Positions 390-13,280 are shown, numbered from the stretch's first letter. The stretch is 64,000 bases of DNA from Escherichia coli (GCF_003790525.1 NZ_CP033635.1); one strand, 5' to 3'. Made by a program: numbers and translations. Notes: generated by a model from the sequence alone, not told the origin.

Positions 390-1403
390 ATGTCTGAAGG
401 CTGGAACATTGCCGTCCTGGGCGCAACTGGCGCTGTGGGCGAAGCCCTGCTTGAAACGCTGGCTGAACGTCAGTTCCCGGTTGGGGAAATTTATGCACTG
501 GCACGTAACGAAAGCGCAGGCGAACAACTGCGCTTTGGTGGTAAGACAATCACCGTGCAGGATGCCGCTGAATTCGACTGGACGCAGGCGCAGCTGGCGT
601 TTTTTGTTGCAGGCAAAGAAGCTACCGCTGCCTGGGTTGAAGAAGCGACCAACTCAGGTTGTCTGGTGATCGACAGCAGCGGATTGTTTGCTCTCGAACC
701 CGACGTACCGCTGGTGGTGCCGGAAGTAAACCCGTTTGTACTGACCGATTACCGCAACCGGAATGTCATCGCCGTACCAGACAGTCTGACCAGCCAGCTG
801 CTGGCGGCACTGAAACCGCTAATTGATCAGGGCGGTTTATCACGTATCAGCGTTACCAGCCTGATTTCAGCCTCCGCCCAGGGTAAAAAAGCGGTCGATG
901 CGTTAGCGGGGCAGAGTGCTAAATTACTCAATGGCATTCCGATTGACGAAGAAGATTTCTTCGGGCGTCAACTGGCATTCAATATGCTGCCGTTACTGCC
1001 GGATAGCGAAGGTAGCGTGCGTGAAGAACGTCGTATCGTTGACGAAGTACGCAAAATCCTGCAGGACGAAGGGCTGATGATTTCGGCAAGCGTCGTCCAG
1101 GCACCGGTATTCTATGGTCATGCCCAGATGGTCAACTTTGAAGCACTGCGTCCGCTGGCGGCAGAAGAAGCGCGTGATGCGTTTGCTCAGGGCGAAGATA
1201 TTGTGCTCTCTGAAGAGAACGAATTCCCGACTCAGGTGGGGGATGCTTCTGGTACGCCGCATCTTTCCGTTGGCTGCGTACGTAATGATTACGGTATGCC
1301 GGAGCAAGTTCAGTTCTGGTCGGTGGCCGATAACGTTCGCTTTGGCGGCGCGCTGATGGCAGTAAAAATCGCCGAGAAACTGGTGCAGGAGTATCTGTAC
1401 TAA
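390..1403 (+). CDS. usg: USG-1 protein (aspartate-semialdehyde dehydrogenase paralog)
   Basis: 337-aa ORF with N-terminal NAD-binding motif VLGATGAVG; recognised as E. coli Usg; stop overlaps truA start (TAATG). Confidence 0.9.
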
Positions 1404-2297: not shown

Positions 2298-2957
2298 ATG
2301 GACCTGATTTATTTCCTCATCGATTTTATCCTGCACATTGACGTGCATCTGGCAGAACTGGTCGCGGAGTATGGCGTCTGGGTTTATGCCATTTTGTTCT
2401 TAATTTTGTTCTGTGAAACCGGTCTGGTGGTAACGCCGTTTTTACCGGGTGATTCATTGCTGTTTGTTGCCGGTGCGTTGGCATCACTGGAAACCAACGA
2501 TCTCAACGTCCATATGATGGTGGTGCTGATGCTGATCGCCGCGATTGTGGGTGACGCGGTGAACTACACCATTGGACGGTTATTTGGTGACAAACTGTTC
2601 AGTAATCCGGATTCGAAAATCTTTCGTCGCAGTTATCTTGATAAGACTCATCAGTTTTATGAGAAACATGGCGGCAAAACGATTATTCTCGCCCGTTTTG
2701 TGCCGATCGTCAGAACGTTCGCGCCGTTCGTTGCGGGAATGGGCCACATGTCGTATCGTCATTTCGCCGCTTTTAACGTCATCGGCGCGTTGCTATGGGT
2801 ACTGATTTTTACCTACGCGGGTTATTTCTTCGGAACGCTCCCCTTCATTCAGAGCAACCTTAAACTGATGATTGTTGGCATTATTTTTGTTTCAATATTG
2901 CCAGGTGTTTTCGAATTTATTCGCCACAAACGCGCTGCGGCACGCGCCGCAAAATAA
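2298..2957 (+). CDS. dedA: DedA family inner membrane protein
   Basis: 219-aa hydrophobic ORF recognised as DedA. Confidence 0.9.
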
Positions 2958-8389: not shown

Positions 8390-8959
8390 ATGAAACGACT
8401 CATTGTAGGCATCAGCGGTGCCAGCGGCGCGATTTATGGCGTGCGTTTATTACAGGTTCTGCGCGATGTCACAGATATCGAAACGCATCTGGTAATGAGC
8501 CAGGCAGCGCGCCAGACCTTATCCCTCGAAACGGATTTTTCCCTGCGCGAAGTGCAGGCATTAGCCGATGTGACGCACGATGCGCGCGATATTGCTGCCA
8601 GCATTTCTTCCGGTTCTTTCCAGACGTTGGGGATGGTGATTTTACCCTGTTCAATCAAAACCCTGTCCGGCATTGTCCATAGCTATACTGATGGCTTACT
8701 GACCCGTGCGGCAGATGTGGTGCTGAAAGAGCGTCGCCCGTTGGTGCTCTGCGTGCGTGAAACGCCACTGCACTTAGGCCATCTGCGTTTAATGACTCAG
8801 GCGGCAGAAATCGGTGCGGTGATTATGCCTCCCGTTCCGGCGTTTTATCATCGCCCACAATCCCTTGATGATGTGATAAATCAGACGGTTAATCGTGTTC
8901 TTGACCAGTTTGCAATAACCCTTCCTGAAGATCTCTTTGCCCGCTGGCAGGGCGCATAA
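8390..8959 (+). CDS. ubiX: flavin prenyltransferase UbiX
   Basis: 189-aa ORF recognised as UbiX; follows purF. Confidence 0.9.
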   Translation: MKRLIVGISGASGAIYGVRLLQVLRDVTDIETHLVMSQAARQTLSLETDFSLREVQALADVTHDARDIAASISSGSFQTLGMVILPCSIKTLSGIVHSYTDGLLTRAADVVLKERRPLVLCVRETPLHLGHLRLMTQAAEIGAVIMPPVPAFYHRPQSLDDVINQTVNRVLDQFAITLPEDLFARWQGA

Positions 8960-8967
8960 CTCCGCTG

Positions 8968-8990
8968 TTGCCCTGTTTCAGGGCAATTTT
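8968..8990 (+). terminator. intrinsic terminator after ubiX
   Basis: TTGCCCTG-ttt-CAGGGCAA hairpin followed by TTTT. Confidence 0.5.
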
Positions 8991-9140
8991 GCAACCGCGA
9001 TCAAATCCTCGACATTTTGTTTCTGCCATTCAATCGAAACGCTGCGATTCAACCGCTATACCTGCTATCTTCAACTTCATGACAATAATGCAACGTCTTA
9101 TTAACATATTTAACGTTGAATGTTACTGCTGTCGTCAAGA

Positions 9141-9157
9141 TGGCATAAGACCTGCAT
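9141..9157 (+). promoter_or_regulatory. candidate sigma54 (-24/-12) promoter for argT
   Basis: TGGCATAAGACCTGCAT has GG and GC at the correct 10-bp spacing of the TGGCAC-N5-TTGCA consensus, about 70 bp upstream of the argT ATG. Confidence 0.55.
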
Positions 9158-9224
9158 GAAAGAGCCTGCAAACACACAACACAATACACAACATAAAAAA
9201 GCCATTTTCACTTGAGGGTTATGT

Positions 9225-10007
9225 ATGAAGAAGTCGATTCTCGCTCTGTCTTTGTTAGTCGGTCTCTCCGCAGCGGCTTCCAGCTATGCGGCGCTACCGG
9301 AGACGGTACGTATCGGAACCGATACCACCTATGCGCCGTTCTCGTCGAAAGATGCTAAAGGTGATTTTGTTGGCTTTGATATCGATCTCGGTAACGAGAT
9401 GTGCAAACGGATGCAGGTGAAATGTACCTGGGTTGCCAGCGACTTTGACGCGCTGATCCCCTCACTGAAAGCGAAAAAAATCGACGCCATTATTTCGTCG
9501 CTCTCCATTACCGATAAACGTCAGCAGGAGATTGCTTTCTCCGACAAGCTGTACGCCGCAGACTCTCGTCTGATTGCTGCCAAAGGTTCACCGATTCAGC
9601 CAACGCTGGATTCACTGAAAGGTAAACATGTTGGTGTGCTGCAGGGATCAACCCAGGAAGCGTATGCCAATGATAACTGGCGCAGTAAGGGGGTCGATGT
9701 GGTGGCCTATGCTAACCAGGATTTGGTCTATTCCGATCTGGCTGCAGGACGCCTGGATGCTGCGTTACAAGATGAGGTTGCTGCCAGCGAAGGTTTCCTT
9801 AAGCAACCCGCCGGTAAAGATTTCGCCTTTGCAGGCCCATCAGTGAAAGACAAAAAATACTTCGGTGACGGCACCGGTGTAGGGCTGCGTAAAGATGATG
9901 CTGAACTGACGGCGGCCTTCAATAAGGCGCTTAACGAGCTGCGTCAGGACGGCACCTACGACAAGATGGCGAAAAAGTATTTCGACTTTAATGTCTACGG
10001 TGACTGA
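9225..10007 (+). CDS. argT: lysine/arginine/ornithine-binding periplasmic protein
   Basis: 260-aa ORF with signal peptide; paralog of the adjacent hisJ. Confidence 0.9.
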
Positions 10008-10065
10008 TACGTCGCAGGGAAGCTGTACCTGATGGAATGATCATCATGGTGCACGCCAGGTTTGT

Positions 10066-10082
10066 TGCACTATCGTGGTGCA
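10066..10082 (+). promoter_or_regulatory. NtrC-like palindrome (TGCACTATCGTGGTGCA) in the argT-hisJ intergenic region
   Basis: Matches the 17-bp TGCACC-N5-GGTGCA architecture; a second GGTGCAC half-site lies at about 10048-10054. Confidence 0.4.
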
Positions 10083-10227
10083 TTGAAATGCATACTTAAG
10101 CATTTTTAATGAAAAATAATACGTCTAACGGGGCGGGATATTTTGCCTTGATGGTCAATTTTATGGCACGATAAGTGTAACAAACCTGTAAATATTCCCT
10201 ATAAAAAGACAGTCAGTTGAGGACATT

Positions 10228-11010
10228 ATGAAAAAACTGGTGCTATCGCTCTCTCTGGTTCTGGCCTTCTCCAGCGCAACTGCGGCGTTTGCTGCGATTC
10301 CGCAAAACATCCGCATCGGTACCGATCCGACCTATGCGCCATTTGAATCAAAAAATTCACAAGGTGAACTGGTTGGCTTCGATATCGATCTGGCGAAGGA
10401 GTTGTGCAAACGCATCAATACGCAATGTACGTTTGTCGAAAACCCACTGGATGCGTTAATCCCGTCCTTAAAAGCGAAGAAGATTGACGCCATCATGTCA
10501 TCGCTTTCCATTACGGAAAAACGTCAGCAAGAAATAGCCTTCACCGACAAACTGTACGCTGCCGATTCTCGTCTGGTGGTGGCGAAAAATTCCGACATTC
10601 AGCCGACAGTCGAATCGCTGAAAGGCAAACGGGTAGGCGTATTGCAGGGCACCACCCAGGAGACGTTCGGTAACGAACACTGGGCACCAAAAGGCATTGA
10701 AATCGTCTCGTATCAGGGGCAGGACAACATTTATTCTGACCTGACTGCCGGACGTATTGATGCCGCGTTCCAGGATGAGGTCGCTGCCAGCGAAGGTTTC
10801 CTCAAGCAGCCAGTCGGCAAAGATTACAAATTCGGTGGCCCGTCTGTTAAAGATGAAAAACTGTTTGGCGTAGGGACAGGCATGGGCCTGCGTAAAGAAG
10901 ATAACGAACTGCGCGAGGCACTGAACAAAGCCTTTGCCGAAATGCGCGCTGACGGTACTTACGAGAAATTAGCGAAAAAGTACTTCGATTTTGATGTTTA
11001 TGGTGGTTAA
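10228..11010 (+). CDS. hisJ: histidine-binding periplasmic protein
   Basis: 260-aa ORF with signal peptide; highly similar to argT; followed by hisQMP. Confidence 0.9.
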
Positions 11011-11099
11011 TCGCCATCGGTGAAAGAAAGTCCGCTCCCTTCGGGTAACCGGAGGGAGACAAGAGGCGGTAATTCACCACACACGACAGGACAGGCAGC

Positions 11100-11786
11100 A
11101 TGTTGTATGGGTTTTCAGGTGTTATTTTACAGGGGGCGCTCGTCACGCTGGAGCTGGCTATCAGCTCTGTAGTGCTCGCTGTAATCATCGGTTTAATTGG
11201 CGCTGGCGGTAAGCTCTCGCAAAATCGGCTTTCGGGGCTGATTTTCGAAGGGTACACCACGCTGATTCGAGGCGTGCCGGACTTGGTGTTGATGCTGCTA
11301 ATTTTCTACGGTTTGCAGATTGCACTAAACACGGTGACGGAGGCGATGGGCGTCGGGCAGATTGATATTGATCCGATGGTCGCAGGTATTATCACTCTCG
11401 GTTTTATCTACGGAGCTTACTTTACCGAAACGTTTCGTGGCGCGTTTATGGCAGTGCCGAAAGGACATATAGAGGCGGCGACGGCGTTCGGTTTTACTCG
11501 TGGGCAAGTGTTTCGGCGGATCATGTTTCCGGCGATGATGCGTTACGCCCTGCCAGGCATTGGCAACAACTGGCAGGTGATCCTCAAATCTACCGCACTG
11601 GTTTCGTTACTCGGCCTGGAAGATGTGGTCAAAGCCACGCAGCTGGCAGGCAAAAGTACCTGGGAACCGTTCTATTTCGCTATCGTCTGTGGCGTGATTT
11701 ATCTTGTTTTCACCACCGTTTCCAATGGTGTGCTGCTGTTCCTTGAGCGCCGCTACTCCGTGGGTGTGAAGAGGGCTGACCTGTGA
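11100..11786 (+). CDS. hisQ: histidine ABC transporter permease
   Basis: 228-aa membrane ORF recognised as HisQ. Confidence 0.9.
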   Translation: MLYGFSGVILQGALVTLELAISSVVLAVIIGLIGAGGKLSQNRLSGLIFEGYTTLIRGVPDLVLMLLIFYGLQIALNTVTEAMGVGQIDIDPMVAGIITLGFIYGAYFTETFRGAFMAVPKGHIEAATAFGFTRGQVFRRIMFPAMMRYALPGIGNNWQVILKSTALVSLLGLEDVVKATQLAGKSTWEPFYFAIVCGVIYLVFTTVSNGVLLFLERRYSVGVKRADL

Positions 11787-12499
11787 TCGAAATCTTACAT
11801 GAATACTGGAAACCACTGCTGTGGACTGACGGTTATCGCTTTACTGGCGTGGCGATCACCCTGTGGCTGCTGATTTTGTCGGTAGTGATAGGCGGAGTTC
11901 TGGCGCTGTTTCTGGCGATTGGTCGCGTCTCAAGTAATAAATACATCCAGTTTCCAATCTGGTTATTTACCTATATTTTTCGCGGTACGCCGCTGTATGT
12001 TCAGTTGCTGGTGTTCTATTCCGGCATGTACACGCTGGAGATTGTTAAGGGAACCGAGTTCCTTAACGCCTTTTTTCGCAGTGGCCTGAACTGTACCGTG
12101 CTGGCGCTGACGCTTAACACCTGTGCTTACACCACCGAGATTTTTGCCGGAGCGATCCGTTCAGTGCCGCATGGGGAAATCGAAGCCGCCAGAGCCTATG
12201 GCTTCTCGACCTTTAAAATGTATCGCTGCATTATTTTGCCTTCTGCGCTGCGTATTGCGTTACCGGCATACAGCAACGAAGTGATCCTGATGCTGCACTC
12301 TACTGCGCTGGCGTTTACGGCCACTGTGCCGGATCTGCTGAAAATAGCCCGCGATATTAACGCCGCCACGTATCAACCTTTTACCGCCTTCGGCATTGCC
12401 GCGGTGCTCTATTTAATCATCTCTTATGTCCTGATCAGCCTCTTTCGCAGAGCGGAAAAACGCTGGTTGCAGCATGTGAAACCTTCTTCAACGCACTGA
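11783..12499 (+). CDS. hisM: histidine ABC transporter permease
   Basis: 238-aa membrane ORF; start overlaps hisQ stop by 4 nt. Confidence 0.9.
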
Positions 12500-12506
12500 G
12501 AATACG

Positions 12507-13280
12507 ATGTCCGAGAATAAATTAAACGTTATCGATTTGCACAAACGCTACGGCGAACACGAAGTGCTGAAAGGGGTTTCACTGCAAGCGAATGCCGGAG
12601 ATGTAATTAGCATCATCGGATCGTCGGGATCGGGGAAAAGTACCTTTCTGCGCTGCATTAACTTCCTCGAAAAACCGAGCGAAGGATCGATCGTGGTCAA
12701 TGGCCAGACGATCAATCTGGTGCGCGACAAAGATGGTCAACTCAAAGTCGCCGATAAAAATCAGCTGCGCTTACTGCGCACACGCCTGACGATGGTATTC
12801 CAGCACTTCAATCTCTGGAGCCATATGACGGTGCTGGAAAACGTCATGGAAGCGCCGATTCAGGTGTTGGGCCTGAGCAAGCAGGAAGCGCGCGAGCGGG
12901 CGGTGAAGTATCTGGCGAAAGTCGGGATAGACGAACGTGCGCAGGGGAAATATCCGGTGCATCTTTCCGGCGGTCAGCAACAGCGTGTTTCCATCGCAAG
13001 GGCGCTGGCAATGGAACCGGAAGTTTTACTGTTTGATGAACCTACCTCGGCGCTCGATCCTGAACTGGTAGGCGAAGTGTTGCGTATTATGCAGCAACTG
13101 GCAGAAGAGGGGAAAACCATGGTGGTGGTGACCCACGAAATGGGCTTTGCTCGCCATGTTTCTACTCACGTCATTTTTCTCCATCAGGGGAAAATAGAGG
13201 AAGAAGGCGCGCCGGAGCAGTTATTTGGCAACCCGCAAAGCCCTCGTCTGCAACAGTTCCTTAAGGGATCGCTGAAATAA
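12507..13280 (+). CDS. hisP: histidine ABC transporter ATP-binding protein
   Basis: 257-aa ORF with Walker [10 protein letters not shown] and ABC signature LSGGQQQR. Confidence 0.95.

Follow-up and report, generated by a model that had tools for sequence, protein, structure and literature searches.

The window, the whole stretch of DNA analysed here, comprises 64,000 nucleotides of Escherichia coli (GCF_003790525.1 NZ_CP033635.1), and in it purF, ubiX, argT, hisJ and hisQMP follow one another on the + strand in the K-12 order, as judged from their reading frames and from the annotation of K-12. A segment of 1.3 kb that holds the motifs discussed below matches several E. coli chromosomes at 100% identity, and 5425 of the 5426 complete genomes of this species contain it. 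The genes that frame the motifs are the following:

8390-8959, + strand: ubiX (open reading frames and K-12 annotation)
9225..10007, + strand: argT coding sequence, lysine/arginine/ornithine-binding protein (open reading frames and annotation)
10228..11010, + strand: hisJ coding sequence, histidine-binding protein, followed by hisQMP (open reading frames and annotation)

Compared with K-12, this part of the window has four differences, all of them non-coding (9080, 9129, 10016 and 10211), and zero insertions or deletions; inside each of the argTp, NtrC and hisJ motifs the K-12 sequence is unchanged. Given that there is no indel, published K-12 coordinates convert exactly to the window, the NC_000913.2 coordinate being 2435038 minus the window position, a relation that was checked with the published argT and hisJ coordinates and with the centre of the sigma-54 motif. 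For comparison, orthologous loci were taken from about 20 Enterobacteriaceae genera (n=80 for argTp, n=81 for the spacer and the hisJ element). With a probability of roughly 90%, we identify the locus as a well-studied one, namely the region that places the argT-hisJQMP amino-acid transporter cluster of E. coli under nitrogen control; several sources and databases count this cluster as a single operon, and there is no evidence that contradicts the core of this identification. Every element that was listed by an initial annotation of the window is already in the literature or in databases, and none is a new member or variant. Two features lie ahead of argT:

9141..9156, + strand: argTp, the -24/-12 element TGGCATAAGACCTGCA, of the form TGGCAT-N5-CTGCA (TGGCAT-AAGAC-CTGCA), from sequence, matrix score and published sigma-54 ChIP-seq
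9169..9199, + strand: C/A-rich stretch in the argT 5' untranslated region, a putative site of the GcvB small RNA target type, conserved across genera

The -24/-12 element TGGCATAAGACCTGCA lies 84 nt 5' of the argT ATG (9225). The pattern TGGCAY-N5-YTGCW has 4 occurrences in the 64 kb against 0.57 expected, a number reached in 1 of 100 shuffles. A position-weight-matrix scan for RpoN, which the initial annotation had proposed as a check, was performed over 128,000 positions with a sigma-54 matrix made from 27 published promoters (argT omitted); argTp scored 14.6 bits and ranked 2-3 among them, and its GG and GC dinucleotides are exactly 10 bp apart, as the sigma-54 class requires. The element is kept in all 80 orthologous loci, 66-105 nt before the ATG, with the spacer alone varying. 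The exact 17-mer ATGGCATAAGACCTGCA is the sigma-54 ChIP-seq site OS22, which was assigned to argT in vivo and whose listed distance of 58 nt agrees with the transcription start that we infer near 9167. Binding in vitro has also been reported, as a gSELEX peak of the RpoN holoenzyme at argT. The argT promoter of Salmonella (TGGCATAAGACCTGCATG) is identical and a constitutive activator raises Salmonella argT 3.5-fold, and argT is stated at review level to be sigma-54- and NtrC-dependent. Papers and sequence alike place sigma-54 at argTp, and TGGCATAAGACCTGCA at 9141-9156 is the published E. coli sigma-54 promoter of that name; the proposal of the initial annotation that a good -24/-12 element precedes argT is borne out by the matrix score, the OS22 match and the identity with Salmonella. 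An overlapping sigma-70 promoter has been reported at argT as well, with a start about 5 nt upstream of the sigma-54 motif, which then spans +6 to +22, and sigma-54 lowers argT expression to 23%. Further downstream in the leader, the C/A-rich stretch accords with the listing of argT as a GcvB R1 target.

The spacer between argT and hisJ harbors a cluster of NtrC sites:

10024..10053, no strand: 30-bp unit TGTACC-N18-GGTGCA, a probable overlapped double NtrC site (10024-10040 plus 10037-10053, offset 13 bp), from comparison, the glnHp2 layout and its place under the NtrC ChIP-seq peak
10066..10082, no strand: high-affinity NtrC palindrome TGCACTATCGTGGTGCA, 13 of 14 matches to TGCACCA-N3-TGGTGCA, under the ChIP-seq peak

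The palindrome TGCACTATCGTGGTGCA is the sole TGCAC-N7-GTGCA in the 64 kb, where 0.11 are expected, and at least one appeared in 10 of 100 shuffles; on sequence alone it is suggestive, and conservation together with a published ChIP-seq peak makes the case solid. In nitrogen-starved E. coli, NtrC ChIP-seq gave a 23.7-fold peak at 2424941-2425021 (NC_000913.2), the strongest published for this locus, which the authors assigned to hisJQMP and for which they reported higher hisJQMP polymerase occupancy and expression under starvation. This peak maps to 10017-10097 of the window, so that NtrC is seen on the spacer under nitrogen starvation over a segment that spans both the palindrome and the extra half-site. 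NtrC-like sites (at least 11 of 14 positions) occur in the spacer of 74 of the 81 loci as against 1% of shuffled spacers. The initial annotation had pointed to a 17-bp TGCAC-N7-GTGCA palindrome between argT and hisJ, to an additional half-site, and to the fit of these motifs with known Ntr regulation. The palindrome was found as described, at 13 of 14 consensus positions and under the ChIP-seq peak, and the half-site is present too (TGCAC, 10050-10054), being better read as TGGTGCA at 10047-10053, the right arm of the 30-bp unit; the regulatory fit is supported by published sigma-54 and NtrC binding and by the NtrC dependence stated in the literature. From its sequence, the unit at 10024-10053 can be read as two 17-bp NtrC sites offset by 13 bp, and units of the form TGCACCA-N16-TGGTGCA stand at the same place in 48 of the 81 loci. 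The centres of the double site are 29 and 42 bp from that of the palindrome, and the same three-site pattern recurs in other genera.

Between this cluster and hisJ, three further features have to be considered together:

10087..10125, no strand: putative ArgR operator of hisJ, two ARG boxes (10087-10104 and 10108-10125, 3-bp gap), each with 4 mismatches to wnTGAATwwwwATTCAnw, the exact placement being a prediction
10143..10172, + strand: hisJ sigma-70 promoter with predicted hexamers, -35 TTGCCT (10143-10148), 18-bp spacer and extended -10 TGnCACGAT (10164-10172)
10164..10179, + strand: hisJ-proximal sigma-54-like element TGGCACGATAAGTGTA, TGGCAC-N5-GTGTA, from matrix score and comparison

In the literature, hisJQMP is described as having a sigma-70 promoter and as being weakly repressed by ArgR, with an operator of two 18-bp ARG boxes 3 bp apart, located 17 bp upstream of the -35. 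In the window, the boxes at 10087-10125 are the best pair at the published spacing and are strongly conserved; TTGCCT at 10143-10148 lies seventeen bp past them, and TGGCACGAT, 18 bp later, is readable as an extended -10. Both TTTGCC and TGGCACGATA are conserved across loci, and sequence and papers agree on a hisJ sigma-70 promoter with ArgR boxes. A different published prediction for the hisJ promoter, TTGAAA-16-TTTAAT, corresponds to 10083-10110.

The sigma-54-like motif upstream of hisJ that the initial annotation had noted, TGGCACGATAAGTGTAA, was found starting at 10164. It had been described as having the -12 GC out of register, which did not hold: there is no displaced GC, the -24/-12 register is correct and the GG is present, and GT takes the place of GC at -13/-12, a T for C at -12 being the sole defect. 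The same deviation is found in accepted sigma-54 promoters (pspA TTGTA, pspG TTGTA, and hydN GTGAA/GTGTA). The matrix score of 14.0-15.4 bits is comparable to that of argTp and among the six best of the 128,000 positions; the higher value came from a first matrix that included hydN of Salmonella, a promoter similar to the hisJ motif, and without it the hisJ score fell from 15.4 to 14.0, which keeps it within the top 6 of the window. The distance between TGGCAC and the hisJ ATG is the same in 81 of 81 loci, and a GC exactly in register at -12 was counted in 44 of them, where chance would give about 6%. At -12, GTGTA is shared by all seven Escherichia loci, and the full consensus CTGCA or CTGCT is present in 23 loci of several genera; Citrobacter, Franconibacter and others carry the consensus TGGCACGATAACTGCA (CTGCA, 19 bits), and Salmonella has CCGCA or TCGCA. 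Given this excess of GC in register and the consensus in related genera, the element looks like an ancestral sigma-54 promoter; comparison of the sequences suggests that it probably decayed in some lineages, including Escherichia, and overlaps the sigma-70 -10, and its -24 half is possibly kept everywhere by doubling as the sigma-70 extended -10. Sigma-54 occupancy at the hisJ element is absent from published E. coli sigma-54 ChIP-seq tables and supplements, and no separate RpoN gSELEX peak has been reported at hisJ. The corresponding Salmonella sequence, TGGCACGATAGTCGCATC, was flagged in one study as a predicted sigma-54 promoter that, on the evidence, is inactive. The suggestion in the initial annotation that hisJ uses a different promoter type agrees with all of this, namely with the sigma-70 promoter and ArgR boxes of the literature, the inactive Salmonella element and the lack of a sigma-54 ChIP-seq site.

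The spacer NtrC cluster has two candidate targets, the hisJ sigma-54-like element about 90-100 bp downstream of it and argTp about 0.9 kb upstream. Across genera, the distances of NtrC-like sites from the hisJ TGGCAC are quantised, falling at about 88, 110, 140 and 152 bp, and in Escherichia a 21-bp deletion removes the region of the promoter-proximal site and shifts the 110-class site to 90, which equals two helical turns. Counted from the start predicted for the hisJ element, about 10190, the NtrC sites of E. coli have their centres at about -116, -145 and -158, and this is classical enhancer geometry.

Upstream of argTp, within 300 bp in E. coli, the best NtrC candidates match 8-9 of the 14 consensus positions. 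One palindrome is found directly beyond the ubiX gene:

8969..8985, no strand: palindrome TGCCCTGTTTCAGGGCA just after the ubiX stop, terminator-like in E. coli, with 8 of 14 NtrC matches

The palindrome TGCCCTGTTTCAGGGCA resembles a ubiX terminator and may also represent an upstream NtrC site that has degenerated; its counterpart in Klebsiella and Raoultella is TGCGCC-N5-GGTGCA, with 11-13 of 14 NtrC matches. In Enterobacter, Klebsiella, Raoultella, Pseudocitrobacter and others, a strong TGCAC-N7-GTGCA precedes the argT ATG by about 285 nt (and argTp by about 200 bp) and is followed 31 bp downstream by a second palindrome at what is the TGCCCTGTTTCAGGGCA position in E. coli. Escherichia is without the strong upstream TGCAC-N7-GTGCA, and in E. 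coli this first palindrome is missing because the ubiX stop abuts the second. Across the 81 loci, no clear association was seen between a strong upstream argT site and a GC at the hisJ -12 (12, 18, 32 and 19 loci in the four cells). The published NtrC ChIP-seq also contains a weak peak at 2425861-2425941 (5.4-fold, under the 9-fold threshold of the source paper), which corresponds to 9097-9177 of the window, over the argTp core.

A mechanism can be proposed in which sigma-54 polymerase would sit on argTp (9141-9156) as a closed complex, which would not fire until NtrC that has been phosphorylated in response to nitrogen limitation reaches it through a DNA loop and hydrolyses ATP. On the spacer, phospho-NtrC would oligomerise on the three sites and then loop to a sigma-54 closed complex; the cluster could either weakly activate the degenerate hisJ element or act on argTp from 0.9 kb downstream. 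The hisJQMP genes are reportedly read mainly from the weakly ArgR-repressed sigma-70 promoter that overlaps this hisJ element and, because no strong terminator follows argT, might also come under nitrogen control by read-through from argT. A strong argT terminator was considered and rejected, as a terminator scan gave just a weak 5-bp stem at 10122-10135. Published RNA-seq data from 42 °C show the RNA of the whole cluster to be 4-6 times lower with sigma-54 than without it (argT 127 vs 550, hisJ 109 vs 703, hisM 18 vs 64, hisP 16 vs 75), a drop that co-transcription would account for, as would occlusion of both promoters by sigma-54. An argTp-lacZ fusion relocated to lac keeps its response to glnK loss (2.4-fold, with 3.2-fold at the native gene), and activity is also seen from an argTp-gfp plasmid reporter; if these constructs exclude the argT-hisJ spacer, the spacer sites are dispensable for argTp.

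Several explanations of the spacer sites and of their target have to be weighed. That the cluster drives hisJQMP directly, with sigma-54 polymerase using TGGCAC-N5-GTGTA in nitrogen-starved cells and starting near 10190 atop a constitutive sigma-70 promoter, is a tentative proposal, with the odds somewhat against it. It draws on the enhancer geometry (centres at about -116, -145 and -158), on distances from sites to TGGCAC that are constant within 1-2 bp over about 20 genera, and on the Escherichia 21-bp deletion, which preserves the phase; the fixed spacing could nevertheless reflect chained local constraints (ARG boxes, -35/-10, NtrC-NtrC spacing). The hisJ motif scores as high as argTp does, a T at -12 is known from natural sigma-54 promoters (pspA, pspG and hydN), and the CTGCA consensus is retained in Citrobacter, Franconibacter and others, but the Salmonella version, which does have an in-register GC, is described as not active. 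Similarly, the ChIP-seq authors assigned their peak to hisJQMP, whose polymerase occupancy and expression starvation raises, whereas neither a sigma-54 ChIP-seq site nor a separate gSELEX peak has been reported at E. coli hisJ and the gene is described as sigma-70-transcribed. Alternatively, the cluster could be a remote enhancer about 0.9 kb downstream of argTp, with nitrogen control of hisJQMP coming only from argTp read-through, a reading that we hold to be rather unlikely. The only strong NtrC sites of the locus and its only strong NtrC ChIP peak sit in the spacer, Escherichia is without the strong upstream site of Enterobacter, Klebsiella and others, and the weak peak on the argTp core is what a looped contact would give; the absence of a convincing argT terminator and the one-operon view in databases agree with read-through. 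Reitzer and Magasanik reportedly found in 1986 that NtrC acts from kilobase distances on either side, which favours such a remote enhancer. Against it, the argTp reporters placed elsewhere are still responsive, the genera that have a strong upstream argT site retain the spacer sites too, and helical phasing relative to hisJ is irrelevant for a 0.9-kb loop. Besides direct action on hisJ and remote action on argTp, the remaining probability belongs to both acting, or to argTp being activated from weak local sites at high NtrC. It can be speculated that in Escherichia the spacer enhancer lost its hisJ partner, argTp lost its upstream enhancer, and the spacer enhancer was re-targeted to argTp, a sequence of events that we regard as doubtful and less likely again than the remote enhancer as such.

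Two further explanations concern what the conserved motifs are. The hisJ TGGCAC might be conserved purely as a sigma-70 extended -10 (TGnCACGAT), its likeness to sigma-54 being incidental and the element never having been a sigma-54 promoter; all 81 loci share TGGCAC(G/A)(A/T)TA, while the -12 part varies among 29 different pentamers, and a -35-like TTGCC is conserved 18 bp upstream. This is improbable, since 44 of the 81 loci have the GC exactly in register, where about 6% would be expected, and 23 have CTGCA or CTGCT; conserved NtrC sites, moreover, require a sigma-54 partner, and researchers of Salmonella predicted the same sigma-54 element. Least probable is that the dyads after argT are hairpins in RNA or DNA (a 3' stem-loop or terminator of argT) and not protein sites. 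Long stems are predicted in many genera and the inner complementarity of the 30-bp unit is kept by double changes (46 cells vs 23.6 +/- 4.2, with 0 of 500 shuffles reaching 46), but the outer arms are invariant NtrC half-sites and not covarying pairs, the region is occupied by NtrC in vivo, no T-run follows the dyads, and the E. coli fold is unremarkable (z -1.6). An Rfam scan of 8800-11300 at E <= 1 gave no family match, which also counts against a hairpin.

The motifs reported by the initial annotation are textbook nitrogen-control signals that were correctly picked from the sequence, and this finding itself brings no new biology. Two points are added by the present analysis, namely that the hisJ element has the features of an in-register, decayed sigma-54 promoter that still has the consensus in several related genera, and that the locus has no strong NtrC sites other than those beside this apparently decayed promoter, 0.9 kb downstream of the usually credited argTp. 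Given this position, the target of a classical enhancer becomes testable with a few simple mutants. If true, a re-targeted spacer enhancer would represent a natural bacterial enhancer that switched to the promoter of a neighbouring paralogue.

The closest known system is the orthologous locus of Salmonella typhimurium, argTr/dhuA (Ames & Nikaido 1985; Schmitz et al. 1988), where, as cited in later papers, an NtrC-binding site was first defined; its argT -24/-12 is identical. As in E. coli, an NtrC dyad is found in the Salmonella argT-hisJ spacer (TGCACCATTTTGGTGCA in S. diarizonae, 14 of 14), and the Salmonella hisJ element, beginning TGGCACGATAG, is a predicted sigma-54 promoter and reported as inactive. 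Salmonella differs by its GC at -12 (TCGCA/CCGCA) and by 21 additional bp that include another half-site, where Escherichia has GTGTA and the deletion. Overlapping sigma-70 and sigma-54 promoters, as in Salmonella glmY/glmZ and the class I/II sites of Schaefer 2015, show the same overlap that is found at argTp and, by inference, at hisJ, although hisJ differs from these in being without reported sigma-54 occupancy. The glnHp2 promoter of the E. coli glutamine ABC transporter is, like argTp, a sigma-54 promoter of a periplasmic binding-protein gene, and its -12 is non-consensus (TTTCA). In K-12, the sequence CGCACCAGATTGGTGCCCCAGAATGGTGCA (CGCACCA-N16-TGGTGCA), about 110 bp upstream of glnHp2, has the same 30-bp overlapped double NtrC layout as the argT-hisJ spacer. 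A difference is that glnHp2 is reported to need IHF, whereas no IHF consensus with at most 1 mismatch was found upstream of argTp or in the argT-hisJ spacer. Overlapping NtrC sites have been described at glnHp2, and the enhancer of E. coli glnAp2 consists of 17-bp NtrC dyads about 30 bp apart, which lie about 110-140 bp upstream of its -24/-12 promoter and act by looping. In contrast to glnAp2, the strong dyads of the argT locus are downstream of the gene that is usually credited and beside a second, degenerate promoter; in its way of working, the argT-hisJ locus is like glnAp2 and glnHp2.

The argT-hisJ spacer holds a 30-bp NtrC double site at 10024-10053. Complementarity within this unit was counted in alignment A1, which comprises 35 distinct orthologous sequences. 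Its inner positions remain complementary despite changes on both sides, with 46 complementary cells against 23.6 +/- 4.2 after shuffling, a count matched by none of the 500 shuffles. Such inner complementarity is not predicted by the overlapped NtrC sites alone, and a hairpin within the unit may therefore also be under selection.

The same spacer has been shortened in Escherichia, where alignment with Salmonella and Citrobacter reveals a 21-bp deletion at 10083-10086. Through this deletion the region of a third NtrC-like site was lost, and the distance from the main NtrC palindrome (10066-10082) to the TGGCAC of the sigma-54-like element near hisJ (10164-10179, +) fell from about 110 to 90 bp, a shift of two helical turns. 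A search for the IHF consensus, allowing at most one mismatch, found no site in this spacer or upstream of the argT sigma-54 promoter (9141-9156, +), and an action of Lrp on hisJ has been reported.

Differences among genera are also seen upstream of argT. In E. coli, the palindrome at 8969-8985, 3' of the ubiX stop codon, resembles a terminator. Klebsiella and Raoultella carry at the corresponding position an NtrC-like dyad with 11-13 of 14 matches to TGCACCA-N3-TGGTGCA, and another NtrC dyad, a strong one, lies 31 bp upstream of this position in many genera, Escherichia being without that dyad (orthologous loci named for this comparison: L023, L035, L037, L052, L059 and L060). Between this palindrome and the argT promoter, 8986-9125 contains several near-invariant blocks, such as GCGATCAAATCCTCGACATTT, CCTGCTATCTTCA and GACAATAATGCAACGTCTTATTAACATATTTAACG, among about 20 genera compared. 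Within the argT 5' untranslated region, a C/A-rich stretch, AAACACACAACACAATACACAACATAAAAA (9169-9199), is kept across genera in the alignment. Listed targets of the small RNA GcvB include argT and hisQ, via the R1 seed.

When the whole window was searched with the sigma-54 pattern TGGCAY-N5-YTGCW, TGGCATGGAGCCTGCA at 62215-62230 (-) was one of four matches; it is the published sigma-54 ChIP-seq site IS28, intragenic within arnT and upstream of arnE. Three further sigma-54-like motifs score 14.1-14.8 bits against a weight matrix from 27 published promoters (argT left out):

973-988 (+), sigma-54-like motif TGGCATTCAATATGCT
2876-2891 (+), sigma-54-like motif TGGCATTATTTTTGTT
62903-62918 (-), sigma-54-like motif TGGCACTATTTTTTCT

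The list of sigma-54 ChIP-seq sites published for E. coli contains none of these three.

Expression of the argT-hisJQMP cluster (9225-13280) at 42 °C was reported in the supplement of a published RNA-seq study. As far as its tables go, argT is the only gene of the cluster in the sigma-54-repressed table, hisJ appearing in the expression table only. When wild-type sigma-54 is present, expression of the whole cluster is 4-6 times below the level recorded in its absence, with RPKM values of 127 versus 550 for argT and 109 versus 703 for hisJ.
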